From Candidatus Limnocylindrales bacterium (GTDB lineage: Bacteria; Chloroflexota; Limnocylindria; Limnocylindrales; CSP1-4), in assembly GCA_036003325.1 (NCBI GenBank), contig DASYSM010000036.1, positions 1,941-65,940 of the forward strand: 64,000 bases of DNA, read 5' to 3'. The first letter of the stretch is position 1. Every line of letters starts with the position of its first letter. Below the pieces are notes generated by a model that saw only the letters and a list, made by a program, of their open reading frames with translations, was not told the origin of the DNA and did no database searches. Of this stretch, positions 34,615 to 51,920 are shown piece after piece. A program made the translations under genes and the position numbers.

Positions 34615-35525
34615 CTTGGCCCCTTGCCCCGTGCTCCGACCGGCACCCGCCGGCGGCCCGCATCGAGACCGTACAGGCTCCGGCGAGGGAGGCCGGTGCT
34701 GACGGCGACGCGCCGCGCCGCGTCGCCGCGGGCGAGGCCGCCGGCGACCAGGGCTTCGACCTCCGCCTGGGCCGCCGCCAGGGCCGATGCGGCCGCGCCC
34801 TCCTCTGCCGGTCGTCCGCCGCGCCAGTCCCCGACCACGATCGCGAACTCGCCACGGGGCGGGATGTCGCCACCGGCCTGGGCGGCCGTGGCCAGCCCGC
34901 CGAGCGACCCGCGCACGATCGATTCGTGGACCTTGGTCAGCTCGCGACAGACCGCGCCGGGGCGGTCCGGCCCACACGTCTCGGCGAGCTCGCGCAGGGT
35001 CGCGGCGACGCGCGTCGGCGCCTCGTACAGGATCGTGCCTCGGTCGTCGGCCGCGATCCGGGCCAGTCGCTCGCGACGTTCACGTCCGGACCGGGGCAGG
35101 AACCCCTCGAACGCCCAGCGCGGCCCGGCCACCCCGGAACCCGCGACCGCCGCGAGCACCGCCGAGGCGCCGGGGACCGGCACGACGACACCACCCTCGT
35201 CGGCCCAGGCCGCGATCAGCTCGCCGCCCGGGTCGCTGACCGCCGGCGTCCCGGCGTCGGTGACCAGCGCGAGATCGGAGCCGCCGCGCAGATGCTCGAG
35301 GAGCGAGGCGGTCCGGCCCGCGTCGCTCCGGGCGTGGTAGCTGGTCATCCGGGTGGCGATCGCGTGGTGGTCGAGCAGCCGCCGCGTGTGGCGCGTGTCC
35401 TCGGCGGCGATGAGCGGGACGGCGCGGAGCACCTCGATCGCCCGGAGCGTGATGTCGCCGAGGTTCCCGATCGGCGTCGCGACGACGTACAGGACACCGC
35501 CCGGCCCCGGCCCCCCGCCCGTCAC
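34611..35525 (-). CDS. rsmI: 16S rRNA (cytidine1402-2'-O)-methyltransferase
   Basis: Trimmed to the GTG at 35525, which overlaps the nadE stop as GTGA. The sequence includes LYVVATPIGNLGDITLRAIEVL, AAEDTR and DAGTPAVSDPG. Confidence 0.88.
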   Translation of the reverse strand: MTGGGPGPGGVLYVVATPIGNLGDITLRAIEVLRAVPLIAAEDTRHTRRLLDHHAIATRMTSYHARSDAGRTASLLEHLRGGSDLALVTDAGTPAVSDPGGELIAAWADEGGVVVPVPGASAVLAAVAGSGVAGPRWAFEGFLPRSGRERRERLARIAADDRGTILYEAPTRVAATLRELAETCGPDRPGAVCRELTKVHESIVRGSLGGLATAAQAGGDIPPRGEFAIVVGDWRGGRPAEEGAAASALAAAQAEVEALVAGGLARGDAARRVAVSTGLPRRSLYGLDAGRRRVPVGARGKGPR

Positions 35526-36433
35526 CCGCGCGACGACCCCGGCCGGCGACGCGGATAGAGGTAGTCGACGCCGGCCGTCCGCGGCCCGAGCTTGGCGATC
35601 GGCGGGACCTGGCGCTTGAACTCGGCGCCGGCGACCATCCGGTCGACCCGCTCGACCATCGCCGCATCGAACCCGAGCGCGACCATCTCCTCGACCGACC
35701 GCCGCTTGTCGACCCGCCAGAACAGCAGCCGGTCGAGGACCGGATAGCTGAAGCCGCCCTCGTGCTCGTCGGTCTGGCCCGGCCACAGGTCGGCCGACGG
35801 CGCCTTGCGGACGATCGCGTCGGGGACGCCCAGGGCGACGGCCAGCTGCCGGACCTGGCTCTTGTACAGGTCGCCGATCGGGTTGAACGCGCAGGCCGCA
35901 TCGCCGAACAGGGTCGTATAGCCGATGAGCGATTCGGTCTTGTTGCCGGTGCCGACCACCAGCCCGCCCCACGTCACCGAGCGGTCGTACAGGACGGCCA
36001 TCCGCATCCGCGCCGCGAAGTTGCCCCGCCGCAGCGGCCCGGCGACCGTGCTGTCGGGACCCTCGGCGCCGGGCATCGTCCCCGTCCCGAAATAGCCGTC
36101 GACCATGGCCGTGATGTCCACGATGTCGCTGGCGCAGCCGATGGCGGCGACGACCGACTCCGCGTCGGCCCGCGACGCGGGCGACGACGTCCGGTACGGC
36201 AGCATGACCGACAGCAGACGGTCCGCCCCGATCGCCTCGGCGACGAGGAAGGCGACGAGCGCAGAGTCGATGCCGCCCGACAGCCCGAGGACGGCGCGCT
36301 CGAACCCGGCCTGCTCGAGCTGGCCGCGGATGAACTCGGCGATGACACGGCGGGCGACGTCCGTGTCGATCGCCAGCTCCTCGGGCAGCTCGAACGGTGC
36401 GCCGGCTCCCGGGGCGGGCTCGATGACGGTCAT
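35522..36433 (-). CDS. nadE: NAD+ synthetase, synthetase (ATP-pyrophosphatase) subunit only
   Basis: Trimmed to the ATG at 36433, which overlaps the stop of the upstream CN-hydrolase gene as ATGA. It has the PP-loop SGGIDS and GTGNKTE. Confidence 0.88.
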   Translation of the reverse strand: MTVIEPAPGAGAPFELPEELAIDTDVARRVIAEFIRGQLEQAGFERAVLGLSGGIDSALVAFLVAEAIGADRLLSVMLPYRTSSPASRADAESVVAAIGCASDIVDITAMVDGYFGTGTMPGAEGPDSTVAGPLRRGNFAARMRMAVLYDRSVTWGGLVVGTGNKTESLIGYTTLFGDAACAFNPIGDLYKSQVRQLAVALGVPDAIVRKAPSADLWPGQTDEHEGGFSYPVLDRLLFWRVDKRRSVEEMVALGFDAAMVERVDRMVAGAEFKRQVPPIAKLGPRTAGVDYLYPRRRPGSSRG

Positions 36434-37437
36434 GCGCCGCGGTCCAGCCGCCGCGGTCCGCGCTCCCCGGCCGCCCCGAACCCGATCGGTCCCGCTGGCG
36501 GCTCGGCGGCGACAAGGTCGAAACCGGGCTCGGCGCCACGTTCGGCGGTCGCATCGTCGACCAGCCCGGCTCGCTCGGCGACCAGCCGCTGGAGCTCGCG
36601 GACCTGCAGCTCGAGCCGTTCGTCGCGGAGCAGTGGCAGCGCGATCCGCTCCCGGCGAACGTCGGCGAGCGAGATCTCGACCGTGTACAGCCCCTCGTCG
36701 TAGAGGGGGGCGCTGAACACGGCCCGACCGCTCGGCGCGATGACCTCCGAGCCGCCCCAGAAGGAGATCGACTCGTCGACCCCGACCCGGTTGCAGAACA
36801 CGACGAACGAGGTGGTCAGCTGGGCGTACGTCCGCATCAGGGTCCGCCATGAGGTGGCGGTGCCCAACCCGACCTCGTTCGTGGCGGCCAGGTCACGCCC
36901 GGGCGACGACGAGATGTTGACCAGGATCTGGGCTCCGTCGAGGGCCAGCACCTGGGGCACGGGCAGGTGCCAGAAGTCCTCGCAGATCGCGATCCCGAGA
37001 CCGACCCCGAGTCGCGACGGGACGGTCCGCAGCAGGTCGCCGGCGGCGAAGAAGCGGCGCTCGTCGAACAGCCCGTAGGTCGGCAGGAACAGCTTGCGAT
37101 GGACGTGACGGAGCTCGCCGTCCTCGAGCAGGGCCGCGGCGATGAACAGCCGGTGATCGGCCGATTCCTCGACGAACGAGACGATGGCCGACAGCCCGCG
37201 GGTCGCGCCGGCCAGCTCGGCCAGGCGCGGATCGTCGAGCCGCATCGCCACCTCCGACGCCAGATCCTGGAGCTGGTAGCCGGTCAGACCCAGCTCGGGA
37301 AAGACGACCAGCCCCGCGCCCTTTCCCCGGGCGTCCTCGAGCAGGGCATGGTGGGTCGCGAGGTTGACGTCGAGCGAGCCGAGCCGCGGCGCGATCTGGG
37401 CGAGCGCGATGGTGAGCGTCTGCACGCTCCGGAGCAT
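36430..37437 (-). CDS. Carbon-nitrogen hydrolase (nitrilase superfamily); likely the glutaminase partner of NadE
   Basis: Trimmed to the ATG at 37437. The catalytic triad context is FPELGLTGY (Glu), HRKLFLP (Lys) and GIAICEDFW (Cys). The C-terminus is extended by about 70 aa. Confidence 0.8.
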   Translation of the reverse strand: MLRSVQTLTIALAQIAPRLGSLDVNLATHHALLEDARGKGAGLVVFPELGLTGYQLQDLASEVAMRLDDPRLAELAGATRGLSAIVSFVEESADHRLFIAAALLEDGELRHVHRKLFLPTYGLFDERRFFAAGDLLRTVPSRLGVGLGIAICEDFWHLPVPQVLALDGAQILVNISSSPGRDLAATNEVGLGTATSWRTLMRTYAQLTTSFVVFCNRVGVDESISFWGGSEVIAPSGRAVFSAPLYDEGLYTVEISLADVRRERIALPLLRDERLELQVRELQRLVAERAGLVDDATAERGAEPGFDLVAAEPPAGPIGFGAAGERGPRRLDRGA

Positions 37438-37560
37438 ACGCGAAGGTCCGGCGCCCGAGCGATGACCTTCGTCCCGACGACGCGCCGCAGCGCCCGATGC
37501 TAGGCTTCCCGACGCCCACGCCGGCGCCCGGGGCCGCATCGATCAGGAGCAGCTGCGACC

Positions 37561-39435
37561 GTGTCACGACCACGCCGCCGGACGGCGGGATCCGCCGCAT
37601 CCACGCTGGCCGTCGTGGTTCTGCTCGCCGCCTGCGGCCCGACGATCCCGCCCATCCCCACCTCCCCGCCGACCCCCACCCCACGCGCCGAGACCCCCCG
37701 ACCGAGCGAGGGCGCCTTCGTGCCGGGCGCCTATCCGCCGTCGGACGACGCTCCGTGCGACCAGGCCAAGCCGCCGGACGCGACGCACGCCGCGTATCGA
37801 GGCGAGCTCAAGCGGATCGTGGCCAAGGATGCCTCCACGGTCCTGTTCGAGCTGTGTTCTCCCGACGTCGCGTTCCTGACCAAGCTCGCCTCGCCGGCGT
37901 TCGGGATCAACGACGCGGGCTGGCTCCGCTCGCATGTCTCGGCCGGCGGCAGCGGCGACCAGCCGATCGTGAGCCAGCTCAACGGGACCGGTCCGTACCG
38001 GCTCGGGGCATGGGACCGGGATACGCAGGTCAGCCTCGACCGCAACAGCGCCTATTGGGGCCCCGCCCCGAAGAACGAGCGACTGATCGTGCGCTGGGGC
38101 GGGGACTCGACCACGCGCGTGTCGGAGCTCCAGAACGGCACGGTGGACGGCATCGACGGCATCGACCCGGCCGGCGTGGCCACCGTGGCCGGCGACGTGA
38201 CGCTCCAGGCGCTGCCGCGAGCCGGACGGGACGTCGTCTATCTCGGCTTCTCCACGGCCAGCCCGCCGCTCGGCAGCGAGAAGGTCCGCCAGGCGATCGC
38301 CGGCGGCCTCGATCGCGCGGGGATCGTCCGAAACGACTTCCCGCCGGGGGCCGAGGTCGCGACGCACTACACCCCGTGCGAAGTCCCTCATGGCTGTGCC
38401 GGTGGCGACTGGACCGACTACGACCCGGTCCAGGCCCGCGAGCTCCTGGCCGCCACCGGCCTGTCGGCCGGCTTCACGACGACCCTCTACTACAGCGCGA
38501 CACCGACGCCCTCGATGCCCGACCCGGGCCGGGTCGCGGCGGAGATCCAGACCGAGCTCCTGGCCAACCTCGGCATCGCGGCCAGGCTCGTCGTCATGCC
38601 CGATGCGGCGTTCCATCGACAGGTCGACGACGGCACGCTCGATGGTCTCCACCTGCTCGATCGGAGCGGGGCGTATCCGGATGCGTCGGCCTATCTCGAC
38701 CCCGTGTTCGGCGGCGACGCCGGACCCGAGTTCGGCACGCCGTTCCCGGACATCGCCAAGGCGCTGGCATCGGGCCGGGCGACGGTCGACCCGGAGAAGC
38801 GCGAGACGGCCTATGCCAAGGCGAACGACCTCATCCGCCAGCACGTCCCGATGATCCCGATCGGCCGGGCGACCCAGCCGACCGCCTACCTGGCCGACGT
38901 CGACGGCGCGCAATCGTCGCCGGTCGGCCTCGAGCATTTCGCCGCGATGACCCCCGGCGATCGCCGCCAGCTCGTCTGGCTGACGACATCCCAGCCACCG
39001 GGGCTGTACTGCGCCGACGAGACCGATCCGATCGCCGCGCTCGTGTGTGCCCAGGTGATGGACGGCCTGTATGCCTTCACGCCGGGTGGGGCGACGCCGA
39101 TTCCGGCGCTGGCCACGAGCTGCGACCCGAACGCCGCGCTGACGGTGTGGACCTGCCACCTGCGGCGCAACGTCCTGTTCGACGACGGCTCGCGGCTCGA
39201 CGCCAACGACGTCGTCCTCAGCTTCGCCGTCCAATGGGACGCCGAGCACCCGCTCCATCGCGGCCGAACCGGCGACTTCGCGACCTTCGCGGCCTGGTTC
39301 GGTGGCTTCCTCCACCCGCCGGCACCACCGCTGCCGCCGAGCCCTCCCGCGTCCGCGTCGCCATCCGGCTCGCCCGGCACGTCGGCGCCGCCGTCGGGCC
39401 GGCCGCCGTCCCCGACGGCGAAGCCGAGCGGCTGA
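37561..39435 (+). CDS. Family-5 (OppA/DppA-type) solute-binding lipoprotein, apparently circularly permuted; orphan
   Basis: GTG start and lipobox (VVVLLAAC). The SBP_bac_5 core motifs are present but in swapped order relative to the two paralogs in this window (details in findings). Both termini carry Pro-rich linkers. Confidence 0.8.
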   Translation: MSRPRRRTAGSAASTLAVVVLLAACGPTIPPIPTSPPTPTPRAETPRPSEGAFVPGAYPPSDDAPCDQAKPPDATHAAYRGELKRIVAKDASTVLFELCSPDVAFLTKLASPAFGINDAGWLRSHVSAGGSGDQPIVSQLNGTGPYRLGAWDRDTQVSLDRNSAYWGPAPKNERLIVRWGGDSTTRVSELQNGTVDGIDGIDPAGVATVAGDVTLQALPRAGRDVVYLGFSTASPPLGSEKVRQAIAGGLDRAGIVRNDFPPGAEVATHYTPCEVPHGCAGGDWTDYDPVQARELLAATGLSAGFTTTLYYSATPTPSMPDPGRVAAEIQTELLANLGIAARLVVMPDAAFHRQVDDGTLDGLHLLDRSGAYPDASAYLDPVFGGDAGPEFGTPFPDIAKALASGRATVDPEKRETAYAKANDLIRQHVPMIPIGRATQPTAYLADVDGAQSSPVGLEHFAAMTPGDRRQLVWLTTSQPPGLYCADETDPIAALVCAQVMDGLYAFTPGGATPIPALATSCDPNAALTVWTCHLRRNVLFDDGSRLDANDVVLSFAVQWDAEHPLHRGRTGDFATFAAWFGGFLHPPAPPLPPSPPASASPSGSPGTSAPPSGRPPSPTAKPSG

Positions 39436-39442
39436 CCGCTCG

Positions 39443-40646
39443 TCAGGCGGGCGGTGGCGCGGTCGGCGGGACGACCGGCGGCGTCGGCACCGTCTGGCTG
39501 CCCGCCGCGGGCAGCGACATCTCGCCCGATCCGGCCGGTGTGCCCGGGACGGGACGCCCGGTGGCCTGGGCCTGCTCCGCGGAACCATCGACCTGCTCGG
39601 CGAAATGGCACGCCACCTCGTGACCGGTGTCGAGGACCCGCAGCTGCGGATCGTCGGTCGTGCAGATCTCCGGCTTGCCGAGCCGCTCACGGAGCCAGCA
39701 GCGCGTGTGGAACCGACAGCCCGATGGCGGGTTGACCGGCGAGGGGACGTCGCCCTTGAGGATGATCCGCCGCCGGCGGCTCTCGATGACCGGGTCCGGG
39801 ATCGGCACGGCCGACAGCAGCGCGACCGTGTAGGGGTGGAGCGGCCTCAGGTTGAGGTCGCGCGATCCGGCGATCTCGACCACCCGTCCGAGATACATCA
39901 CCGCGGTCCGGTCGCTGATGTGGCGGACGACGCTCAGGTCGTGGGCGATGAACAGGTAGGTCAGCCCGAACTCGCCCTGCAGCCGCTCGAGCAGGTTGAT
40001 GATCTGGGCCTGGATCGAGACGTCGAGCGCGCTGATCGGCTCGTCGGCCACGATGAGGTCCGGATTGAGCGCCAGCGCCCGCGCCACCCCGATCCGCTGC
40101 CGTTGGCCGCCGGAGAACTCGTGCGGGTACCGCGACGCGTAGGCCGGGTTGAGCCCGACCGTGTGGAGCAGCTCCCGGACCCTCTCGCGCCGCTCGTCGG
40201 TCGACCCGACCGAATGGATGTCGAGCGGCTCGGCGATGATCCCGCCGGCGGTCATCCGCGGGTCGAGGCTGGCGTACGGGTCCTGGAAGATCATCTGCAT
40301 CCGACGGCGCATGCGGCGCAGCTCGCCGCCCTTGGCGTAGGTCACGTCCTTGCCGTCGAACTGGATCCGTCCCCCGGTGGCGGGGTTGAGCCGGACGATG
40401 GCGCGCCCGGTGGTCGTCTTGCCGCAACCCGACTCGCCGACCAGCCCGAGCGTCTCGCCGCGGGCCAGCTCGAAGCTGACGCCATCGACGGCCTGGACGT
40501 CCCCGACGTGGCGTTGGCGGATGATCCCGTCGCGGATCGGGAAGTAGACCTTGAGGTCCTCGACCCTGAGCAGCGGACCGGCCGGGGCCGCTCCCACCCC
40601 GGCGGCGGCCGCCGCGGCCGTGGCAGTGGCGTGGTCGGGTGCCACG

Positions 40647-40657
<11 letters not shown>
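39443..40657 (-). CDS. Oligopeptide/dipeptide ABC transporter ATP-binding protein (OppF/DppF-like), operon 1
   Basis: Walker A is GESGCGKTT, the ABC signature is FSGGQRQR, and Walker B is IVADEP. The C-terminal region carries four Cys and a Pro-rich tail. Confidence 0.9.
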
Positions 40658-41893
<1,236 letters not shown>

Positions 41894-41897
<4 letters not shown>

Positions 41898-42787
41898 CGC
41901 CGCATCCGCGGATCGAGCGATTCGCGGAGCCCGTCGCCGAGCAGGTTGAAGCCGATGGCGCTGATGACGATCGCGGCGCCCGGGAACCACAGCAGCCACG
42001 GCGCCTGCCGGATGAACTTGGTCGCGTCGGTCAGCATGGTCCCCCACTCGGGCGTCCGCGGATCGGGCGGTCCGAGACCGAGGAAGCCGAGACCGGCGAC
42101 GTCGATGATCGCGGTCGCGAGGGCCAGCGTCGCCGCGACGATCAGCGGCGACAGCGAGTTCGGCAGCAGGTGCCGGAACAGCAGGCGCGACCCCGATGCG
42201 CCGATCGAGCGCGACGCGGTGACGTAATCCGACTCGCGCAGCGACAGCAGGCTGCCGCGCAGGATGCGCGCGAAGATCGGCACGTTGACGATGGCGACCG
42301 CGAACATGATCTGTGGTAAGCCGCGGCCCAGGAAGGCGACGATGCCGATCGCCAGCAGGATGCCGGGGACCGCGAGCATGGCGTCGACGAAGCGCATCAG
42401 CACCGAATCCAGCTTGCCCCCGACGCCGCCCGCGAACGCGCCGATGCTGCCCCCGATGAACACGCCCATCACGACCGACGCGACGCCGGCGACCAGGCTG
42501 ACCTGGGCGCCGAACAGGACCCGGCTGTACTCGTCGCGGCCCTGCGCGTCGGTGCCCATCAGGTGCTCGCGCGATGGCGGCTGGAGACGCTGGGACAGAC
42601 CGCCCTCGAGCGGACCGTACGGCGCGATGACCGGGGCAAGGATCGCCGACAGGACGAAGACCGCGATGAACACGAGGCCCAGGACGGCCGGCCGGTTGCG
42701 GACGAGGCGTCGCGCCGCGTCTCCCCACAGGCCGCGGCTCGCACGCCGGTCGGCCTGCTTGTCGAGCGGGATCGCGGGCGCGGCCAT
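41894..42787 (-). CDS. ABC transporter permease (OppC/DppC-like), operon 1
   Basis: 297 aa, polytopic, with a BPD_transp_1-type EAA region. Confidence 0.9.
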
Positions 42788-43791
42788 CAGGCGTACCGGA
42801 TCCGTGGATTGAGCACGGCGTACAGGATGTCCACGAGCAGGTTCACCACGAGGAAGATGATGGCGAAGATCAGGATCGAATTCTGGATCACGAAGTAGTC
42901 CCGGTTGAAGATCGCGTCGACGACGTACAGACCCACGCCGCCCCAGGCGAAGACGGTCTCGGTGATGACGGCGCCGGCCAGGAGGCCGCCGACCTGGAGC
43001 CCGAGCACCGTGACGACCGGCAGCCAGGCGTTGCGCATGATATGGCGTGAGCTGATCCGGCGTTCTGCCAGACCCTTGGCCCGGGCCGTCCGGACGTAGT
43101 CCTCGTTGTTCACGTCGAGGACCGATGCGCGGGTGATCCGGGTGATGATGGCCAGCGGGATCGACCCGAGCGCGATGGCCGGCAGGATGAGATGGCTGAG
43201 CCCGTTGAGGAACAGGTCCGGGCGTCCCATCAGCAGGCTGTCGATCAGGATGAAGTTCGTCTTGATCTCGAGACCCGCCCGCGGATCGATCCGGCCGGTG
43301 GCGGGGAGCCAGTTGAGCTTCACGGCGAAGATGTACTGGAGCGTCAGGCCCAGCACGAAGACCGGGATGCTGATGCCGAGCAGGGAGACGACGGTGACCG
43401 CTCCGTCCGACCAGCCCTGGGCGTGTCGCGCCGCGTAACGGCCGAGGGGGATGCCGATGCCGGCCGCGAAGATCATCGCCGCCACGGTCAGCTCGATGGT
43501 CGCCGGGAAGCGGACGAGGAACTCCTGGAGGACCGGCTGGCTGTTGATGATGCTTGCGCCGAGATCACCGTGGAGCACGTTGTTGAGGTAGTTCAGGTAC
43601 TGCTGCCAGAGCGGCTTGTCCAGGCCGAGGTACTCCCGCATCGCCTCGACCCGGTCGGGCGTCGCGTGCTGGCCGAGGATGGCCGTCGCCGGGTCGCCCG
43701 GCAACAGGTGGACGAATGCGAACAGCAGGATGGACAGCCCGAACAGGACGGGGATGACCCCGAGCAGCCGGCGGACGATGAACCGGAGCAT
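42787..43791 (-). CDS. ABC transporter permease (OppB/DppB-like), operon 1
   Basis: 334 aa, beginning MLRFIVRRLLGVIPVLFGLSILLF, a typical OppB N-terminus. Confidence 0.9.
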   Translation of the reverse strand: MLRFIVRRLLGVIPVLFGLSILLFAFVHLLPGDPATAILGQHATPDRVEAMREYLGLDKPLWQQYLNYLNNVLHGDLGASIINSQPVLQEFLVRFPATIELTVAAMIFAAGIGIPLGRYAARHAQGWSDGAVTVVSLLGISIPVFVLGLTLQYIFAVKLNWLPATGRIDPRAGLEIKTNFILIDSLLMGRPDLFLNGLSHLILPAIALGSIPLAIITRITRASVLDVNNEDYVRTARAKGLAERRISSRHIMRNAWLPVVTVLGLQVGGLLAGAVITETVFAWGGVGLYVVDAIFNRDYFVIQNSILIFAIIFLVVNLLVDILYAVLNPRIRYA

Positions 43792-43824
43792 CTGGCTGGT
43801 CCTGCCTCAGCGCGGTCGATGGCG

Positions 43825-43859
43825 CGGATCCCCCGGGGCGATTGCCGCCGGGGGATCCG
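43825..43859 (-). other. Intercistronic 12-bp GC stem-loop between the SBP gene and the first permease gene (operon 1)
   Basis: CGGATCCCCCGG, an 11-nt loop, then CCGGGGGATCCG. No U-tract follows on the minus strand. Confidence 0.5.
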
Positions 43860-43902
43860 GATGTTGACGCCTGAAGGGCGCCGATGGCGCCGAGTCAGCC
43901 GG

Positions 43903-45630
43903 CTACTTGTCGAGCCACACGTCGGTGAACAGCTCGAGCAGGGTCGGTCCCGGCACGAAGCCCTTCACGTAGGTCTGGCCAGCCGCGGGGGTCTTGCCCG
44001 AGACGATCGGCACCGACGGCATGTCGGCGACGATCTGGTCCTGGGCGGCTTCCCACTTGCTCTGCTGGGTGGCCTGGTCGGACGCCGCGAGGGCGTCGTT
44101 CATGTCCTGGTTCATCGCGTCGTTCTTGTACGCGTACTCCGGGTTCGGCGCACCGCTGTGGTAGCCGAAGAAGGCCGTGACAAGGAAGTTGTCGATGCCC
44201 AGCCAGTCGCAGTTCCAGCCGATGAGCCAGGCCGGGTAGTTGCCCTTGGACTCGGCCGCGAGGTAGTCCGGGTTCCACGGCGCTGTCATCGGGTTCGGCT
44301 TGAAGCCGACGGCCTCGAGGTCGGACTGGATGGCCTGGAACTCGCCCTTCGGATCGGGCATGTACGGCCGGCTCACGCCGGACGGATACCACATGTCGAA
44401 GGACAGGTCGGTCACGCCGCTGTCCGCGATGAGCTGCTTGGCCATGTCCGGGTTGTAGTCGGGGACCGGCAGGTCCTTGGAGAAGATGGTGCCCGGCGGG
44501 GTCCAGTTCTTGAGGACGACACCGGTCGTGCCGAAGTAGGCGTCGACGATCGCCTGCCGGTTGATCGCATAGGCGACCGCCTGGCGGATCTTGAGATTGT
44601 CGAACGGCTTGTGGGTCTGGTTCATGCCGAGGACGCCCACGTTGCAGGCGCTGCCGCGGTCGTAGAACTGGAGCTTGCTGTCACCCTGGACCGTCGGGAC
44701 GTCGACCGGCGCCAGGGTCTGCGCGACGTCGATGTCGCCGGACTGCAGCGCGTTGAGCGTGGCGGTCGTGTCGGTGATCGGCTTGAAGGTGATCGCGTCG
44801 AGGTACGGGCCGCCGGCGGAGGCGTTCCAGTACGACGGGTTCTTGGTCAGGGTGACGTGGTCGCCCTTGGTCCATTCCTTGAACACGAACGGACCGGTGC
44901 CGACCATGGCCGGCGGCCCGCCCTGGGCGTACTTGTTGTTCTTGAAGTCGGGTGCGCTCGCGTCACCGTCCTGGAGCGCCTTCGGGCTCGCGATCGCGAA
45001 CGGGGTCAGGGTCTGGGTGACCAGGAAGCCCGAGTTCGGGGTCTTCAGGGTGATCACGAACGTGTTCGGGTCGGGGGCGGCCGTCGAGGCGATCGCGCTC
45101 TTGTCGCCGTGCCCGAGGACGGTATCGATGTAGTAGGTGTAGCCGAGGTCGATGTACGACTGCGGGATGTTGATCCAGCGGTCGAAGTTGAACTTGACGG
45201 CCGCCGCGTTGAAGTCGGTGCCATCCGAGAACTTGATGCCCGGGTGCAGCTTGAACGTGTAGGTCAGGCCGTCCGAGCTGATCGTCCAGCTGTCGGCCAG
45301 GTCGCCGATGATGTCGCTGCCGGAGCCCGGCTTGAGCGTCACCAGCGTCTCCATGACGTTCTGCATCACGTACGTCGAGCTGGCGTCATCGACCAGCGCC
45401 GAGTCCGTCCACTTGATGTCGCTGGGGATGGCCACGACGGCTGTTCCGCCCTGCTTGGGCGTTTCGCCGGTCGACGCGGACGGCGCGACCGACGGCGCGG
45501 ACGACGCGCCGGTCGAGGGAGCCGCGGTCGCGGGCGCGGCCGTCGGCGCGGTACTGGTCGCCGCTCCACCGCAGGCCGCGAACACGATCGCGGTCACGGC
45601 GAACAGCGCACCGATACGGACTTGTTTCAT
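43903..45630 (-). CDS. Family-5 peptide/nickel solute-binding lipoprotein (canonical order), operon 1
   Basis: The 733-aa track ORF was trimmed to the ATG at 45630, preceded by GGAGGAGGAGGA. The signal peptide and lipobox read MKQVRIGALFAVTAIVFAAC. Confidence 0.9.
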   Translation of the reverse strand: MKQVRIGALFAVTAIVFAACGGAATSTAPTAAPATAAPSTGASSAPSVAPSASTGETPKQGGTAVVAIPSDIKWTDSALVDDASSTYVMQNVMETLVTLKPGSGSDIIGDLADSWTISSDGLTYTFKLHPGIKFSDGTDFNAAAVKFNFDRWINIPQSYIDLGYTYYIDTVLGHGDKSAIASTAAPDPNTFVITLKTPNSGFLVTQTLTPFAIASPKALQDGDASAPDFKNNKYAQGGPPAMVGTGPFVFKEWTKGDHVTLTKNPSYWNASAGGPYLDAITFKPITDTTATLNALQSGDIDVAQTLAPVDVPTVQGDSKLQFYDRGSACNVGVLGMNQTHKPFDNLKIRQAVAYAINRQAIVDAYFGTTGVVLKNWTPPGTIFSKDLPVPDYNPDMAKQLIADSGVTDLSFDMWYPSGVSRPYMPDPKGEFQAIQSDLEAVGFKPNPMTAPWNPDYLAAESKGNYPAWLIGWNCDWLGIDNFLVTAFFGYHSGAPNPEYAYKNDAMNQDMNDALAASDQATQQSKWEAAQDQIVADMPSVPIVSGKTPAAGQTYVKGFVPGPTLLELFTDVWLDK

Positions 45631-45764: not shown

Positions 45765-47066
45765 CTAGTCCTTCCTCCATGCGTCGGCGGCGTCCGCCTT
45801 GCTGACCCCGACGTTGGGGTCCTCGGCCGCGAGGCCCTCGGTCGTCTCCACCTCGGTCCCCTCCCGGGACATGTCGGCGAAGGCGGGTGCCGAGAAGGCG
45901 GCGATCTGTTCCTCGGTCGGCCCTTCCGCGACGCCCGCCTTGAGCGAGGCGATGGCCGACGCCGGCGTGCCGCGACGGACGAGCGCGTCCCCGATGTGGG
46001 CGATGCCGACGTCGGTCTTGAGCGCTTCCGCGGCGAAATGGCAGGCGGCGGCGTGGTCGGCCCGCTCGGCGACGCTGGTGAGCGGCGGATCGATCGTCCG
46101 GCACTCCTCCGGCTGGCCGAGCCGCTCGTACAGCCAGCAGCGCGTGTGGAAGCGGCAGCCGGGCGGCGGGTTGATCGGGCTCGGGACGTCGCCCTTGAGG
46201 ATCACCCGGCGGCGCTTGCGCTCGGCCACCGGGTCGGGGACGGGCACGGCCGACAGCAGGGCACGGGTATACGGATGGCCGGGCGCCGAGTACAGCTGGT
46301 CGGGCGGACCGATCTCGACGATCTTGCCGAGGTACATCACCGCCACCCGGTCGCTGATGTGCTTGACCACCGACAGGTCGTGGGCGACGAACAGGTAGGT
46401 CAGCCCGAGACGGCGCTTGAGGTCGGTCAGCAGGTTGAGGACCTGGGCCTGGATGGACACATCGAGCGCGGAGATCGGCTCGTCGCAGACGATGAACTCG
46501 GGCTCGACGGCAAGCGCCCGGGCCACGCCGATGCGCTGTCGCTGTCCGCCGGAGAACTCGTGGGGATAGCGCTTGACGTACTGCGGGTCGAGTCCGACCA
46601 GGCGGAGCAGGTCCGCGATGCGCTCCCGCTTGGCCTCGCCCTCGGCGAGGTCGTGGGTCTCGATGGGCTCAGCGATGATCGAGCCGACCGTCATCCGCGG
46701 GTCGAGCGAGCCATACGGATCCTGGAAGATGATCTGCATCCGGCGGCGGGTGCGGCGCAGGTCGGCGCCGGACAGCGTGCCGAGGTCCACGCCGTCGAAG
46801 CGGACGGTCCCGCTCGTCGCGTCCCGCAGCCGGATCATCGCCCGGCCGATGGTGCTCTTGCCGCAGCCCGACTCGCCGACGAGGCCGAGCGTCTCGCCCC
46901 GGCGGACCTCGAAGGTCACGCCGTCGACCGCCTTGACCGTCGCCTTGGTCGTCTGGAAGATGCCACCCCGGATCGGGAAGTGGACCTTGACGTCGTCGAC
47001 CTCGACGAGATTGGCTGGATCGTGCGGGCGGACAGCGGGAGCGGCCGGCGGCGCGGTCGCCGTCAC
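45765..47066 (-). CDS. Oligopeptide/dipeptide ABC transporter ATP-binding protein (OppF/DppF-like), operon 2
   Basis: Trimmed to the GTG at 47066, which overlaps the upstream ATPase stop as GTGA. It has GESGCGKST and FSGGQRQR, four Cys, and a ~100-aa C-terminal extension. Confidence 0.9.
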
Positions 47067-48172
47067 GCGATCCAGCCTTCCGGTTCGGTCGCCCAGCAAC
47101 GGGCCATGTGGTCGGTGCCGCCGCGGCGGGTCAGCTCCGGCTCCTTCTCGCGGCAGACGTCCCGGGCGTAGCGGCAACGCGGGTTGAACCGGCACGCGTC
47201 GGCCGGCCTGATCAACACCGGCGGCAGACCTTCGATGGTCCGCAGGCGATCGCCGCGGACATCGTCGATCCGGGGCAGCGAATCGAGCAGGCCCCAGGAG
47301 TACGGCATCCGGGGCTCCTCGAACAGCTCGTCGACCGTGCCGGTCTCGACGATCCGGCCGGCGTACATCACGTTGACCCGGTCGCACATCCCGGCGGCGA
47401 TGCCGAGGTCGTGGGTGATCATCAGGACGGCCGTCCCGAATTCGCTCGACAGGGTCTGGATCAGCTCCAGGATCTGGGCCTGGATGGTGACGTCGAGGGC
47501 GGTCGTCGGTTCGTCGGCGAGGATCAGCTTCGGGTCGCACGACAGAGCGATGGCGATCATCACGCGCTGGCGCATCCCGCCCGAGAACTGGAAGGGGTAG
47601 TCCTTGAGCCGTTCCTTCGCTCGCGGGATGCCGACCTTCGAGAGCAGCTCGATGGTCCGCTCCTCGGTCGCCTTCTCCGACAGGCCCATGTGCTGACGGA
47701 TGGCCTCGCCGATCTGGTAGCCGATGGTCAGCGTCGGGTTCAGGCTGGTGAGCGGGTCCTGGAAGATGAACCCGATCTCCTTGCCGCGCAGCTTGCGCAT
47801 GTCGTCGGGGCTCAGCTTGAGGACGTCGATGCCGTCGAACAGGATCGAGCCCTTGACGATCTTGCCCGGCGGGTCCGGCACGAGTCGGGCGATCGACAGG
47901 GCGGTGACGCTCTTGCCGCAGCCCGATTCGCCGACCAGACCGAGTGTCTCGCCATAGCCGACGTCGAAGCTGACGTCGTCGACCGCCTGGACGACCCCGT
48001 CGGGCGTGAAGAAGTGGGTCGACAGCCCGCGCACTTCGAGCAGGTGCTCGGCCTTGCGTCCGATCCCGGCCTTGGCGACGGCCTCCGTGCGAGCACGGAG
48101 AACGTCGTCAGCGGACAGTTCGACGATGGTCGGTGCGTCGGCGGCGGACATGTCCTCCTCGGCGCTGACCAC
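47063..48172 (-). CDS. Oligopeptide/dipeptide ABC transporter ATP-binding protein (OppD/DppD-like), operon 2
   Basis: 369 aa with [16 protein letters not shown] and a C-terminal 4-Cys motif. Start is GTG at 48172. The alternative is ATG at 48151, just after GAGGAGGA. Confidence 0.88.
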
Positions 48173-49111
48173 CTATTGCTTCCCCTTCAGCTTCGGATCG
48201 AGGGCGTCACGGAGACCATCACCCACGAACGTGAAGCTGATCAGCGCGACCGCGATGCAGACCGCCGGGAAGAAGGTCAGCCACGGGCTCGAGCGGATGA
48301 CCGCCTGGCCGTCGTTGATGAGGCTGCCCCACGAGGCACGTGGTGCCTGGACGCCGATGCCGATGTAGGCCAGCGTCGCCTCGGCGAGGATGGCCGCCGG
48401 GATGCCCAGGGTGATCGCGACGATGATCGGACCGATCCCGTTCGGCAGCAGGTGCTTGGTGACGATCTTGCGGTCGGACACGCCGATCGCCTTGGCCGCC
48501 TCGACGAACTCGGTCTCCTTGAGCGCCAGCATCTGGCCACGGACCAGCCGCCCGACGGTCACCCAGGTGGTCAGCCCGATGGCCACGAACACCAGCAGCA
48601 GGCCGTCCATCGCCTGCCCGAACGGGGTCTGCTTGAACACGACCGTCAGCAGGATGATGAACAGCAGGTCCGGGAAGGCGTACATCACGTCGGTGAAGCG
48701 CATCAGGACGTTGTCGGTGCGGCCGCCGAACCAGCCGGCCATCGCGCCGATCGGCACGCCGATGCAGATGACCACGATCTGGACCACGATCGCCACGGAC
48801 ATGCTGATCCGGGCGCCGTCCATGAGGCGGCTGAGCAGGTCACGCCCGATCTGGTCGGTCCCGAGGATGTGCCCGCCGGTCAGCGGCGGCAGCGGCTGGC
48901 CCTTGTTGGCGACGACCGCGGTGAGGTCCTGGTCCTGGTAGTTGTAGGGGGCCAGGATCGAGCCGAAGACCGCGATGAACGTGACGAAGCCGACCATGAT
49001 CAGGCCCAGCATCGCCAGCTTGTTCTTGCGCAGCCGCGAGAAGGCGTCACGCCACAGGCTCGCCGACGGCTGGGGCTTTGCGACGCCGCCTCGGAGGGTA
49101 TCGGTGGCCAT
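48173..49111 (-). CDS. ABC transporter permease (OppC/DppC-like), operon 2
   Basis: 312 aa, polytopic, paralogous to 41894..42787. Confidence 0.9.
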   Translation of the reverse strand: MATDTLRGGVAKPQPSASLWRDAFSRLRKNKLAMLGLIMVGFVTFIAVFGSILAPYNYQDQDLTAVVANKGQPLPPLTGGHILGTDQIGRDLLSRLMDGARISMSVAIVVQIVVICIGVPIGAMAGWFGGRTDNVLMRFTDVMYAFPDLLFIILLTVVFKQTPFGQAMDGLLLVFVAIGLTTWVTVGRLVRGQMLALKETEFVEAAKAIGVSDRKIVTKHLLPNGIGPIIVAITLGIPAAILAEATLAYIGIGVQAPRASWGSLINDGQAVIRSSPWLTFFPAVCIAVALISFTFVGDGLRDALDPKLKGKQ

Positions 49112-49122
49112 CGATCGGACTC

Positions 49123-50040
49123 CTAGCTGTAGCGGATGCGCGGATCGATGAAGGCGTACAGCACATCGACCACGAGGTTGAGGAACGCGACGACGAACGC
49201 ATACAGGATCGTCATCGCCATCAGCACCCCGTAGTCATGCTGGCCGATGGACGTGATGTAGTAGCGCCCGATGCCCGGGATCCCGAAGATCGACTCGATG
49301 ATGAACGAGCCGGTCACCAGGAAGGCCAGGGTCGGGCCGAGGATCGTGATCACCGGGATGAGGGCGTTGCGGATCATGTGCCGGGTCACCACCGCGCGGT
49401 CGGCCACGCCCTTGCTCTGGGCAGTCCGGATGTAGTCCTTGCGGGTGACCTCGAGCATCGACGCACGCGTGTAGCGGGTGATGATCGCGATGGGGAAGCT
49501 GGCCAGGGCGATCGTCGGCAGGATCCAGGTGTCAGGACCCTTCCAGCCGCCGGTGGGTAACAGCTTCAATGTGACCCCGAATAACAGGATCATGAGGATG
49601 GCGAGGACGAAGCTGGGCGTGGCGATGCCGAGGACGGAGATGCCCGTCGCGGCATAGTCGGGCCATCTGTTGTGACCGAGCGCGGCGATCACCCCCAACG
49701 GGATGCCGACCGCGACCGACAGGAAGAAGGCCATCAGTCCGAGCTGGACGGTGGTCCAGATCCCACCGCTGACGATGTCGTTGACGCTCCGGTCCTGGAA
49801 CTTGTAGGACGGTCCCAGGTTGCCCTGCAGGAGGTTCGTCACCCAGGTGACGTACTGCACGGGAACCGGCTGATCGAGCCCGTACTTCTCGTTGAGGCGG
49901 GCGATCATCGACGCCGGGACGGCCTTCTCGCGGGCCCACGGTCCGCCCGGCACGGCGTGCATGAGCGAGAAGGTGATCAGAGAGACCACGAAGAGCACCG
50001 GGATGATCCACAAGAACCGACGCGCGATGTACCTGATCAT
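49123..50040 (-). CDS. ABC transporter permease (OppB/DppB-like), operon 2
   Basis: 305 aa, beginning MIRYIARRFLWIIPVLFVVSLITF. Confidence 0.9.
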   Translation of the reverse strand: MIRYIARRFLWIIPVLFVVSLITFSLMHAVPGGPWAREKAVPASMIARLNEKYGLDQPVPVQYVTWVTNLLQGNLGPSYKFQDRSVNDIVSGGIWTTVQLGLMAFFLSVAVGIPLGVIAALGHNRWPDYAATGISVLGIATPSFVLAILMILLFGVTLKLLPTGGWKGPDTWILPTIALASFPIAIITRYTRASMLEVTRKDYIRTAQSKGVADRAVVTRHMIRNALIPVITILGPTLAFLVTGSFIIESIFGIPGIGRYYITSIGQHDYGVLMAMTILYAFVVAFLNLVVDVLYAFIDPRIRYS

Positions 50041-50131
50041 CCGATTCCTCTTGTGTCAGTCCCTAGCGGTACATGTGACAAGTCCCGGGTCCGCGAGAGC
50101 GATCGTACGCGCCCACGAGCCCGGGGGTCTG

Positions 50132-50159
50132 GCGGGAGCCGGACGAGGCCGGCTCCCGC
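50132..50159 (-). other. Intercistronic 11-bp GC stem-loop between the SBP gene and the first permease gene (operon 2)
   Basis: GCGGGAGCCGG-acgagg-CCGGCTCCCGC. It occupies the same position in the operon as the hairpin at 43825..43859. Confidence 0.5.
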
Positions 50160-50180
50160 ATCTGTCGACGACCGAGTCGT

Positions 50181-51920
50181 CTAGTGCTGCGCGATCGAGA
50201 TGTTCTCGTAGAAGTAGTCGCCGATGACGACGGAGTCCTGGGCAGTGCCCTGGACACCCTGGACATACGGCTCGACTTCGTAGTTGCTCACGCGCCACCG
50301 GGTGAAGACCGCGGGGGCGTCCTGGACCAGCAGCTCCTGGGCCTGGTTGTACAGGGCGATCGACTTGTCGAGATCCGGCTCAGCGCCGGCCTTCGCGACG
50401 AGGTCGTCGTACTGCGGGTTCTTGTACTTCGAGTCGTTGTTGCCACTCTGGCTCTGGAACAGCGCGCGGAGCCAGTTGTCCGGGTGCGGATAGTCCGCGC
50501 CCCAGGCGTTCCGGGCGATCGAGAACTTGCCGGCCGGGCGGTCGACCAGGAACTGGTCGAAGGTCTCGCCGACGAGGGTGCTCTGGATGCCCAGGACGGT
50601 GCGCCACTGGTTCTGCATGTAGGCCGACGGAAGCTCGTGGCCGGCGTTGGTGTTGAACCCGAACGACAGCGGCGGAACGTCCGCGGCGGTCTTGTAGCCG
50701 AGCTCGGTCAGCGCCTGGGCCAGCTCGGTCTGCGCGCCGGCGGTGTCGTACTTGAGGCCGATGCCCTCCTGGTGACCGGGCATGCCCGGCGGGATCAGGC
50801 TGTCGGCGACTTCGCCCTGGCCGCCGTAGACGGTGGTCAGCATGGTGTCCTTGTCGATGGCCATCGACAGGGCACGGCGGAGGTGGACGTTGGCGGTCGG
50901 GCCATCAGCGGTGTTGAAGCCCCAGTAGTCGGTCACGAGGACCGGCTGGGTGGTGACCATCGGGCCAAGCGTCGCGTCGGCCTTGATGCGCGGCACGTCG
51001 GGCGGGCTCGCCGCGAGCATGTCGAGCTGGCCGGCCTCGAAGGTCGCCTGGTCAGCGGTCGGATCGCCACCGATCTTGAAGTCGATCTCGGTGAGGGTCG
51101 GCTTCTGGCCGTACCAGTTCGGGTTCGGGACGAGGGTGATGGACGCCTGGTGGGTCCAGTCCTTCATCATGAACGGGCCCGAGCTGACGTAGTTGGCGGC
51201 CTCGGTGAAGTTGGGGGTCTCGACCCACTTCTTCTGGATCGGCCCGGCGCCCCACAGCCCGACGATGTCGAGGAAGTAGCCGGCCGGGTGCGCGAGGGTG
51301 ATGACGAAGGTCTTGTCGTCGGGAGCCGACACGCCGTACTTGTCGAGCGCGGCGTCGATCTCGGCGTCCGTGGCGGCCGGCTTCTTGCCGGTCAGGGCCA
51401 GGATCTCGTCGCCACCCTTGACGTCGGAGTAGAAGGCCTGATAGGTGGACGCGGTGCGCGGATCGATGATCCGCTTCCAGGCGTACACGAGATCACCGGC
51501 GACGATCGGGTCGCCGTTGCTGTACTTCGCGTCGTCGCGGAGGGTGAACGTGTAGGTCAGGCCGTCGGCCGAGATGGTCGGCAGCGCGGTGGCCAGCGAC
51601 GGGACCGGGTTCAGGTCCTTGTCGAAGTAGATCAGGCCCCGGTTGAGGGCGTGGAGGACGCCGATGTCGGTGCTGGTCGAGGCCTTGCTCGGGTCGAGCG
51701 TGTCAGGATCCTCGGCGCCGAGGGACACGTGAAGGACCTGGTCGGCGGCAAGAGCGCCGCCCGAGGCGGCCGCGGACGGCGCGCTCGATGCTCCCGTGGA
51801 CGCCGCCGGCGCAGAACCCGCCGGCTGCGACGCCGCGGGCGCCGACGAGGTGGCGGCACCGCCGCATGCCGCCGAGATGACGGCGATGCTGGCTACGATG
51901 CCAAGTAGACGTTTCTGCAT
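50181..51920 (-). CDS. Family-5 peptide solute-binding lipoprotein (canonical order), operon 2
   Basis: The 638-aa track ORF was trimmed to the ATG at 51920, preceded by GGAGGAG. The signal peptide and lipobox read MQKRLLGIVASIAVISAAC. Confidence 0.9.
   Translation of the reverse strand: MQKRLLGIVASIAVISAACGGAATSSAPAASQPAGSAPAASTGASSAPSAAASGGALAADQVLHVSLGAEDPDTLDPSKASTSTDIGVLHALNRGLIYFDKDLNPVPSLATALPTISADGLTYTFTLRDDAKYSNGDPIVAGDLVYAWKRIIDPRTASTYQAFYSDVKGGDEILALTGKKPAATDAEIDAALDKYGVSAPDDKTFVITLAHPAGYFLDIVGLWGAGPIQKKWVETPNFTEAANYVSSGPFMMKDWTHQASITLVPNPNWYGQKPTLTEIDFKIGGDPTADQATFEAGQLDMLAASPPDVPRIKADATLGPMVTTQPVLVTDYWGFNTADGPTANVHLRRALSMAIDKDTMLTTVYGGQGEVADSLIPPGMPGHQEGIGLKYDTAGAQTELAQALTELGYKTAADVPPLSFGFNTNAGHELPSAYMQNQWRTVLGIQSTLVGETFDQFLVDRPAGKFSIARNAWGADYPHPDNWLRALFQSQSGNNDSKYKNPQYDDLVAKAGAEPDLDKSIALYNQAQELLVQDAPAVFTRWRVSNYEVEPYVQGVQGTAQDSVVIGDYFYENISIAQH

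Follow-up and report, generated by a model that had tools for sequence, protein, structure and literature searches.

Locus and gene organization

The stretch of DNA analyzed here, called the window throughout, comprises 64,000 nucleotides (nt) of a Candidatus Limnocylindrales bacterium (Chloroflexota; GenBank assembly GCA_036003325.1, contig DASYSM010000036.1, positions 1,941 to 65,940 of the forward strand). Its open reading frame (ORF) at 37561-39435, on the forward strand, encodes a lipoprotein of 624 amino acids (aa) that belongs to the SBP_bac_5 family (Pfam PF00496), the family of the cluster C (OppA/DppA-type) solute-binding proteins (SBPs) of ABC transporters. A first-pass annotation, made from the sequence letters, had proposed that this protein is circularly permuted, with the canonical N-terminal segment (A) placed after the rest of the chain (B). 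Our analysis confirmed that the permuted order is real and far beyond chance. We refer to the gene as pSBP, divide segment B into B1 and B2, and call the order A-B1-B2 canonical, B1-B2-A (the window protein) type 1, and B2-A-B1 type 2. The gene is made up of the following parts.

37561..39435, forward strand: complete gene for a type 1 (B1-B2-A) permuted SBP_bac_5 lipoprotein, from the ORF list, the swapped Pfam order, and colinear homologs that are 53-85% identical
37561..37635, forward strand: signal peptide and lipobox (aa 1-25, VVVLLAAC; Cys25 is the lipidation site), read from the sequence
37636..37716, forward strand: Pro-rich flexible tether (aa 26-52), of low complexity, variable across the family alignment, with an AlphaFold2 (AF2) predicted local distance difference test (pLDDT) score of <50
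37717..37806, forward strand: N-terminal extension conserved in the family (aa 53-82, F-V-P...APC66...Y-x-G-E-L), without a canonical counterpart at this position
37807..38472, forward strand: segment B1 (aa 83-304; C99, GTGPY motif, C273, C279), which aligns to about residues 127-343 of mature DppA and is matched by a segment hidden Markov model (HMM)
38473..38946, forward strand: segment B2 (aa 305-462), which aligns to about residues 344-503 of mature DppA
38947..38967, forward strand: junction linker (aa 463-469, M-T-P-G-D-R-R, then Q470), which joins the canonical C terminus to the canonical N terminus
38968..39318, forward strand: segment A (aa 470-586; C484, C496, C521, C532; end WFGGFLHP), with Pfam positions 1-55 at aa 512-566 and residues 8-128 of the GbpA chain
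39319..39435, forward strand: Pro/Ser-rich disordered C-terminal tail (aa 587-624), pLDDT of <50, and stop codon
39426..39441, no strand assigned: hairpin GAGCGG-CTGA-CCGCTC with a 6-bp stem, lying across the pSBP stop codon, 1 nt before the stop codon of the convergent oppF gene (39443-39445), and lacking a T-tract

The ORF opens with a GTG codon, upstream of which an AGGAG motif ends 11 nt before the start. The database gene call (P0001, 606 aa) begins 18 codons downstream of this GTG, which is too late because the signal peptide would lose its conserved RRR n-region. The N terminus, MSRPRRR...VVVLLAAC, was recognized as an export signal with a lipobox by reading the sequence and not with a signal-peptide predictor. 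Cys25 is invariant in the family alignment and was found in 87 of 96 permuted ORFs of related loci. The first-pass annotation had described a Pro-rich linker after the lipobox and a Pro-rich tail. The linker stands for aa 26-52, and aa 53-82 proved to be a conserved extension in which F53, P59, A64, P65, C66, D73, Y79, and G81 are invariant in an alignment of 53 family members. The tail is present at the end of the window protein and is not a feature of the family, being confined to the closest relatives (P0002, P0005, P0006, P0008, and P0009); most family members stop 4-9 residues past FGGFLNP.

Relative to the canonical fold, B1 comprises the second part of the N-lobe, the first hinge crossing, and the beginning of the C-lobe, and B2 comprises the remaining C-lobe, a second crossing of the hinge, and the strand that is C terminal in canonical proteins. 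Segment A corresponds to the canonical first ~120 residues and is C terminal in the window protein. The stop codons of pSBP and of oppF, on the reverse strand, are separated by 7 bp, in agreement with the earlier description of the gene as convergent with the first Opp operon (operon 1). Two 708-aa ORFs in other frames, at 37497-39623 (forward) and 37564-39690 (reverse), overlap pSBP; they are non-genes of a sort typical of DNA with 72% G+C (GC) content.

Order of the segments

When the window protein was compared with PF00496, residues 70-386 matched profile positions 49-364 (E=4.5e-56, 191 bits; gathering cutoff, 32.4), and a scan of the C-terminal 164 residues alone matched residues 512-566 to profile positions 1-55 (E=2.6e-10, 40.4 bits). 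The family therefore matches in two parts in swapped model order. SBP_bac_5 was the sole significant Pfam family in the protein, and the swap was visible also with NCBIfam models. As references for the normal order, the earlier reading had used two paralogs encoded in operons on the reverse strand of the window, at 43903-45630 and 50181-51920. Each of them was colinear with profile positions 1-367.

Pairwise comparisons gave the same result. With BLASTP, residues 80-460 of the window protein aligned to residues 177-568 of paralog 1, and residues 489-555 aligned to residues 82-149. With phmmer against Protein Data Bank (PDB) sequences, residues 84-462 aligned to residues 153-531 of Yersinia pestis DppA (5f1q), and residues 499-578 aligned to residues 60-145. 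A profile of 53 family members, aligned to Haemophilus GbpA (3m8u), placed positions 474-586 on chain residues 8-128 and positions 81-456 on chain residues 124-498, such that the canonical ends abut with an overlap of ~4 residues; the new N terminus thus resumes where the new C terminus stops, as had been claimed. A colinear alignment to the window protein was found for none of the 61 matching PDB sequences, nor among the matching profiles. Two homologous segments are therefore reversed, their ends abut, and no full duplicate is left, in accordance with the general definition of a circular permutation.

By profile alignment, the type 1 cut falls at about residue 117-127 of mature Escherichia coli DppA. 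We tentatively place this position in domain II, the extra domain of the N-lobe that is specific to cluster C and is described with the OppA and DppA structures of 1994-95. The canonical N and C termini of oligopeptide-binding proteins are adjacent in domain I (PMC10924461), as the first-pass annotation had supposed. This adjacency in the domain I sheet makes the permutation structurally feasible, since the conserved linker, of about 7-10 residues, would suffice to join the two termini.

Conservation of the permuted order

At least 700 homologs of the window protein were obtained in a protein search; the best 120 were 53-85% identical to it and colinear over 85-100% of its length, indicating that orthologs share the B-A order. 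Relatives are encoded at 399 loci of GTDB species representatives (one genome per species), nearly all of which bear the label Chloroflexota, many of them Candidatus Limnocylindria or Limnocylindrales. The window itself has a GC content of ~72%, and its protein-level identity to a metagenome-assembled genome (MAG) of the Limnocylindria group is 86%. Two further loci, L023 (labeled Candidatus Saccharimonadales) and L062 (labeled Steroidobacteraceae), carry the permuted gene in Limnocylindria-like synteny under non-Chloroflexota MAG labels, for which mis-binned contigs are a more likely explanation than horizontal transfer.

In order to follow the junction itself, we built a profile from the last ~65 canonical residues, the linker, and the first ~120 canonical residues and compared it with 1.84 billion representative proteins. 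At E<=1e-30, this junction profile matched 139 clusters (50% identity); of those listed, nearly all gave one unbroken match. Among the 149 matches examined, 85 had the full B1-B2-A order and 60 were fragments consistent with it. Residues P465, D467, R468, R469, and Q470 of the junction were invariant in the 53 aligned members, and the family includes members on contigs of >1 Mb.

Predicted fold and cysteine pairs

The AF2 model of the window protein, built with the family alignment, had a predicted template-modeling score of 0.77 and a pLDDT of >85 over most of the core. The best Foldseek matches of this model were DppA, GbpA, HbpA, and SapA, all of them cluster C SBPs, over the B segment. An AF2 model of a type 2 protein, in which A runs into B1 in canonical order, aligned to the same structures over ~384 columns with a root mean square deviation of 4-5 Å. 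Since this length fits the A-to-B1 stretch alone, the B1-to-B2 and A-to-B1 relations are each canonical. These models predict that the three-domain Venus-flytrap fold is kept in the permuted chain.

The first-pass annotation had counted eight cysteines unmatched in the paralogs. The window protein indeed has eight non-lipobox cysteines, compared with two and none in the paralogs, and all eight are invariant in the 53 aligned members and retained in at least 95 of 96 permuted ORFs of related loci, tandem paralogs included. Over 296 permuted sequences, C273 and C279 were both present in 155 and both absent in 141, with no mismatches. C521 and C532 likewise showed no mismatches, C484 and C496 showed three, and the cysteine of the N-terminal extension and C99 were both present in 290, both absent in 4, and mismatched in 2. 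Because the cysteines appear and vanish pairwise, they probably form four family-specific disulfides, Cys66-Cys99, Cys273-Cys279, Cys484-Cys496, and Cys521-Cys532. The near-ubiquitous pairs, N-extension Cys-C99 and C484-C496, flank the new N terminus and the junction, which suggests that they may stabilize the rewired regions.

A second permutation and the origin of the family

The protein P0171 (locus L081, 489-2216), one of the matches of the junction profile, has the order B2-A-B1. It is encoded by a complete ORF with its own signal peptide and lipobox, and a hairpin lies past the stop codon. When the top 120 proteins in a search with P0171 were sorted by segment order, 67 were colinear with it (type 2) and 53 were B1-B2-A. 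The two types share an operon slot, oppD-oppF-SBP-oppB-oppC-x-ferritin, and between type 1 and type 2 operons the identity is 75-81% for the flanking proteins and 71-75% for the SBP segments. The genes representing the two types in this comparison are as follows.

L083, 8001-9737: type 2 gene P0279
L084, 8001-9722: type 1 comparison gene P0331

In a tree of segments reordered alike, type 2 was monophyletic (66 tips) within type 1, with a 12-member type 1 clade as its sister, and the closest type 1/type 2 pair was 84% identical. The type 2 cut lies between '…AGY' and 'PLxIxLxYR', equivalent to residues 304/305 of the window protein, which in the C-lobe mark the B1/B2 boundary. In type 2, a linker of ~20 residues (…NTEAVEVELVETDGLLSMTAPSCDYGGEF) connects the former type 1 ends, and this internal linker resembles the N-terminal linker of type 1 (…PTEAVITADPNFQPMVVSAESCDYGGEF). 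Such a likeness is the residue expected of a fusion of tandem duplicates followed by deletions, with the signal peptide kept. Four further candidates for the B2-A-B1 order, P0197, P0258, P0226, and P0192, were rejected, as their sequences degrade into frameshift garbage.

Permutation by duplication, in which a duplication is followed by truncation, has been argued classically for DNA methyltransferases. We propose that the type 1 form would have arisen by tandem duplication, in-frame fusion, and loss of the outer segments with retention of the signal peptide, and that the same process may have been repeated in a sister clade to give the B2-A-B1 form. The duplication and double truncation envisaged in the first-pass annotation are thereby supported indirectly, by the tandem permuted genes of related loci, a fused A-B-A-B protein, and the type 2 linker remnant. 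A short [FY]-G-G-x-[FL] motif at both type 1 ends, which aligns to the same GbpA residues, also fits this model and has the look of a short duplicated piece left over from the first permutation. Unlike in the classical model, the signal peptide stays N terminal, so that the first deletion must be internal, and both permutants persist as orthologs in one operon slot.

The fused protein is P0190 (L086, 1609-5217), a 1,202-aa single-chain tandem of canonical units (A-B1-B2-A-B1-B2) with a C-terminal extension, encoded between genes for SHMT and a family B DNA polymerase on a 7.5-kb contig. We rejected P0190 as the ancestor of the family, as it is without the family cysteines and linker and its contig carries the family B DNA polymerase. 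Being of another lineage, it is an analogue that shows only that the postulated intermediate state occurs in nature.

Genomic context and domain fusions of the family

Three arrangements were seen around the permuted genes. The first, which most of the more divergent loci show, has oppB-oppC-oppD-oppF after pSBP on the same strand; overall, oppBCDF lies directly downstream on the same strand in the majority of 80 related loci. In the second, 16 loci have two permuted SBP ORFs, mostly in tandem, ahead of oppBCDF, and the second tandem copy is 39-49% identical to the window protein. In the third, shared by the window and at least nine related genomes, pSBP is followed by a convergent and different Opp operon with a canonical OppA. 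A second permuted copy was looked for in the window and not found. In L002, an 80%-identical relative, a pSBP2-oppBCDF unit on the forward strand occupies the place that operon 1 occupies in the window, indicating that this segment has been replaced. As most relatives have their own oppBCDF, the orphan status is a derived, local state. The description of pSBP as an orphan in the first-pass annotation therefore holds for the sub-lineage of the window, which has no permease of its own, and not for most relatives, which head an oppBCDF operon. Orthologs with the local orphan arrangement are intact, without stop codons, and have ratios of nonsynonymous to synonymous substitution rates (dN/dS) of 0.15-0.52, showing that the locally orphaned copies are under purifying selection.

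The type 1 module also occurs in fusions, C terminal to another domain. Among representative clusters, the partner is a Ser/Thr kinase in seven (P0134, P0159, P0155, P0158, P0188, P0212, and P0269), a TIR domain in two (P0141 and P0168), a caspase plus FHA unit in one (P0183), Peripla_BP_6 in four (P0175, P0146, P0211, and P0243), SBP_bac_3 in three (P0186, P0248, and P0256), and a zinc ribbon in one (P0220). The gene for the kinase fusion P0159 (L082, 6001-8946) belongs to an Opp-like operon. There it separates oppC from a canonical SBP gene, and its flanks carry canonical SBP genes. After the permuted module, P0165 (residues ~590-739) and P0175 (residues ~1090-1244) share a C-terminal domain of ~150 residues (…DGWVLESGETTSKGG…YRPQL[IV][IL]EYYVP) for which no Pfam match was found; in P0175, a Flg_new_2 repeat lies ahead of this domain.

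Function and alternative explanations

Taken together, these data make it very likely that pSBP encodes a functional lipid-anchored cluster C (SBP_bac_5, OppA/DppA) binding protein with a circularly permuted chain, and what it does biochemically is probably conventional. Once past the signal peptide, Cys25, the Pro-rich tether, and the N-terminal extension, the chain would enter the fold in the middle of the N-lobe (about residue 125 of mature DppA), cross the hinge to the C-lobe, and return to the canonical C-terminal strand. The MTPGDRR linker, followed by Q470, would couple this strand to the canonical first strand, and the chain would end after ~120 canonical residues. The protein would capture its ligand outside the cell, without the canonical dipeptide Arg/Asp clamp, and hand it over to an importer of the OppBC/OppDF type, which for the window protein may be encoded elsewhere or may be the adjacent convergent Opp system.

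Several observations weigh against this reading. In E. coli DppA, R383 and D436 (precursor numbering) clamp the peptide by its carboxyl and amino groups (PMC12136057). The window protein has T316 at the equivalent of DppA R355 and A371 at the equivalent of D408, and Arg is found at the first position in 22 of 53 members and Asp at the second in 3 of 53; these equivalences depend on the alignment in a loop region. As the clamp is not conserved, canonical peptide binding should not be assumed. No cognate permease was found in the 64-kb window, where the best matches, 43-47% identical, were the operon 1 paralogs. The AF2 confidence is weak at residues 196-216 and 442-449, at the junction (464-468), and in the tails. 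The best Foldseek matches cover ~305-377 columns at template-modeling scores of only ~0.4-0.5; Foldseek aligns in sequence order, and the low coverage is explained by a sequential aligner meeting a permuted chain. The disulfide pairing is a prediction from covariation, and a scan for promoter and terminator consensus sequences, not built for this phylum, found nothing.

The kinase, TIR, and caspase-FHA fusions (seven, two, and one clusters, respectively) raise the question of whether the protein acts mainly as a sensor or co-receptor, signaling via a membrane kinase or another receptor, and not as a transport component. SBPs that stimulate chemoreceptors and sensor kinases are known from this Pfam family (PMC8050422), and the window copy is without a permease in cis. 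However, the ortholog heads an oppBCDF operon in most related genomes, and the window protein itself is without a signaling domain. We therefore regard a primary role in signaling as unlikely.

The missing permease and the position 7 bp from an unrelated convergent Opp operon could also mean that, in the sub-lineage of the window, the gene is a decaying relic left without function by the loss of its pSBP2-oppBCDF partners. The ORF is nevertheless intact in at least nine genomes with the same arrangement, its dN/dS values are those given above, and the hallmark residues are all kept. Moreover, SBPs encoded apart from their permease are well known, for example the multiple DppA proteins of Pseudomonas aeruginosa, which use one DppBCDF (PMC4206461). 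A relic thus appears even less probable than a dedicated sensor, and a functional binding protein remains the preferred interpretation.

That no true permutation took place, and that the protein is an A-B-A partial duplication with a first A that is decayed or lies concealed among the N-terminal 100 residues, is suggested by two features: residues 53-82 are conserved and structured, such that something precedes B, and the short [FY]-G-G-x-[LF] motif stands at either end. With all HMMER filters off, however, an HMM of the A segment gave a single match, at 470-586, and BLASTP of residues 26-100 against A segments returned only low-complexity matches at E>=0.1. In addition, the extension has ~30 residues versus ~120 for A, and Pfam coverage begins only at profile position 49. 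We consider a partial duplication very improbable, and the swap of two single segments, a circular permutation, accounts for the chain. A chimeric join near 38,950 that merely simulates the B-then-A order, conceivable for a metagenome-type source with 72% GC, is excluded for practical purposes because the order recurs across hundreds of independent assemblies, with an invariant PGDRRQ junction in at least 700 proteins, 399 loci, and 139 clusters, including contigs of >1 Mb.

Comparison with known systems

Cluster C SBPs such as OppA, DppA, and NikA, which are common scaffolds for biosensors, rank with the most studied components of ABC transporters. The canonical members E. coli and Y. pestis DppA (1dpp, 1dpe, 5f1q) and Haemophilus GbpA and HbpA (3m8u, 3tpa) are the best sequence and fold matches of the window protein. 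As with these proteins, the gene is linked in relatives to oppBCDF-type permease and ATPase genes. The window protein differs from them in its B-A order, its extra N-terminal extension, its four cysteine pairs, and the unconserved R355/D408 clamp. The NCBIfam equivalogs (DppA/OppA/GsiB/SapA/NikA) all scored far below their cutoffs, the best being DppA_dipep at 119.5 bits versus 1005. All 61 sequence-matched solved structures share one chain order, whereas the permuted clade shows that at least two natural cut points are tolerated.

The first-pass annotation knew of no described permuted cluster C binding protein, and our search of the literature, of incomplete coverage, likewise found no naturally permuted one, only engineered permutations and TpMglB-2 (Tp0684) of Treponema pallidum. 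TpMglB-2 is a circularly permuted cluster B glucose-binding lipoprotein, for which 'Cluster Bc'/'Type Ic' has been proposed; it still binds ligand and closes, and the topology has been tied by the authors, speculatively, to membrane tethering, the family occurring mostly in organisms with tethered SBPs (PMC4990184). The window protein shares with TpMglB-2 the natural permutation of an ABC-transporter SBP, a membrane tether, a conserved family, and clustering with permease genes. Unlike the window protein, TpMglB-2 is a cluster B, type I protein with a Peripla_BP-type fold, from another Pfam family and with another cut site, and neither a second permutation nor fusions to signaling domains were reported in that study (PMC4990184). 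TpMglB-2 is therefore the closest precedent by principle and not by family, and natural circular permutation, previously known for cluster B, is now found in cluster C.

The window gene, without its own permease in cis and next to another Opp system, resembles the genes for DppA1-A5 of P. aeruginosa, which use a single DppBCDF (PMC4206461). Unlike them, the permuted family is ancestrally operon encoded, and sharing of a transporter is only a candidate reading. The window protein is an N-terminal lipoprotein like DppA of Mycobacterium tuberculosis. In the DppABCD complex of that species, DppA's N-terminal loop runs from the N-lobe along transmembrane helix 2 of DppB to the Cys that is lipidated, and the SBP remains docked via the hinge and the N-lobe (PMC10954201). 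Given this path, relocating the N terminus changes the geometry of the tether, and the shift of the lipid tether away from the translocator-contact position on the N-lobe (PMC10954201) poses a testable question of docking geometry.

It is tempting to view the permutation series in the Chloroflexota as a set of adaptive re-tetherings by which the module was turned into a portable sensor domain for kinases, TIR proteins, and caspase-type effectors, a proposal that we hold to be doubtful but worth stating. Each step would shift the tether or transmembrane signaling link, from domain I to the putative cluster C extra domain and then to the C-lobe. If this were true, the approach of the anchored binding protein to its translocator or receptor would be altered.

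The natural cut points offer a guide to acceptable new termini that could be used in sensor and domain-insertion engineering. The type 1 and type 2 orthologs, the linker remnants, the tandem genes, and the A-B-A-B protein together provide an unusually direct natural test of duplication followed by deletion. For specialists in binding proteins and protein topology, the family is a surprising finding and a clean natural system for the origins of permutations. Profile-based annotation calls its members 'ABC transporter substrate-binding protein' and misses the rearrangement.

Neighboring genes

Downstream of pSBP, the reverse strand carries a tandem of two complete canonical Opp-type operons, at 39443-45630 and about 45765-51920. 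Upstream, and divergent from pSBP, are a CN-hydrolase gene, nadE, and rsmI, an arrangement kept in most related loci. The synteny of the CN-hydrolase and nadE genes with pSBP occurs in two arrangements, either divergent upstream or on the same strand downstream of oppBCDF. In the window (35522-37539, reverse strand), the nitrilase-type CN-hydrolase and nadE are separate, overlapping ORFs, as they are in L061, L062, L066, L068, L071, and L073, and they possibly represent a split glutamine-dependent NAD synthetase.

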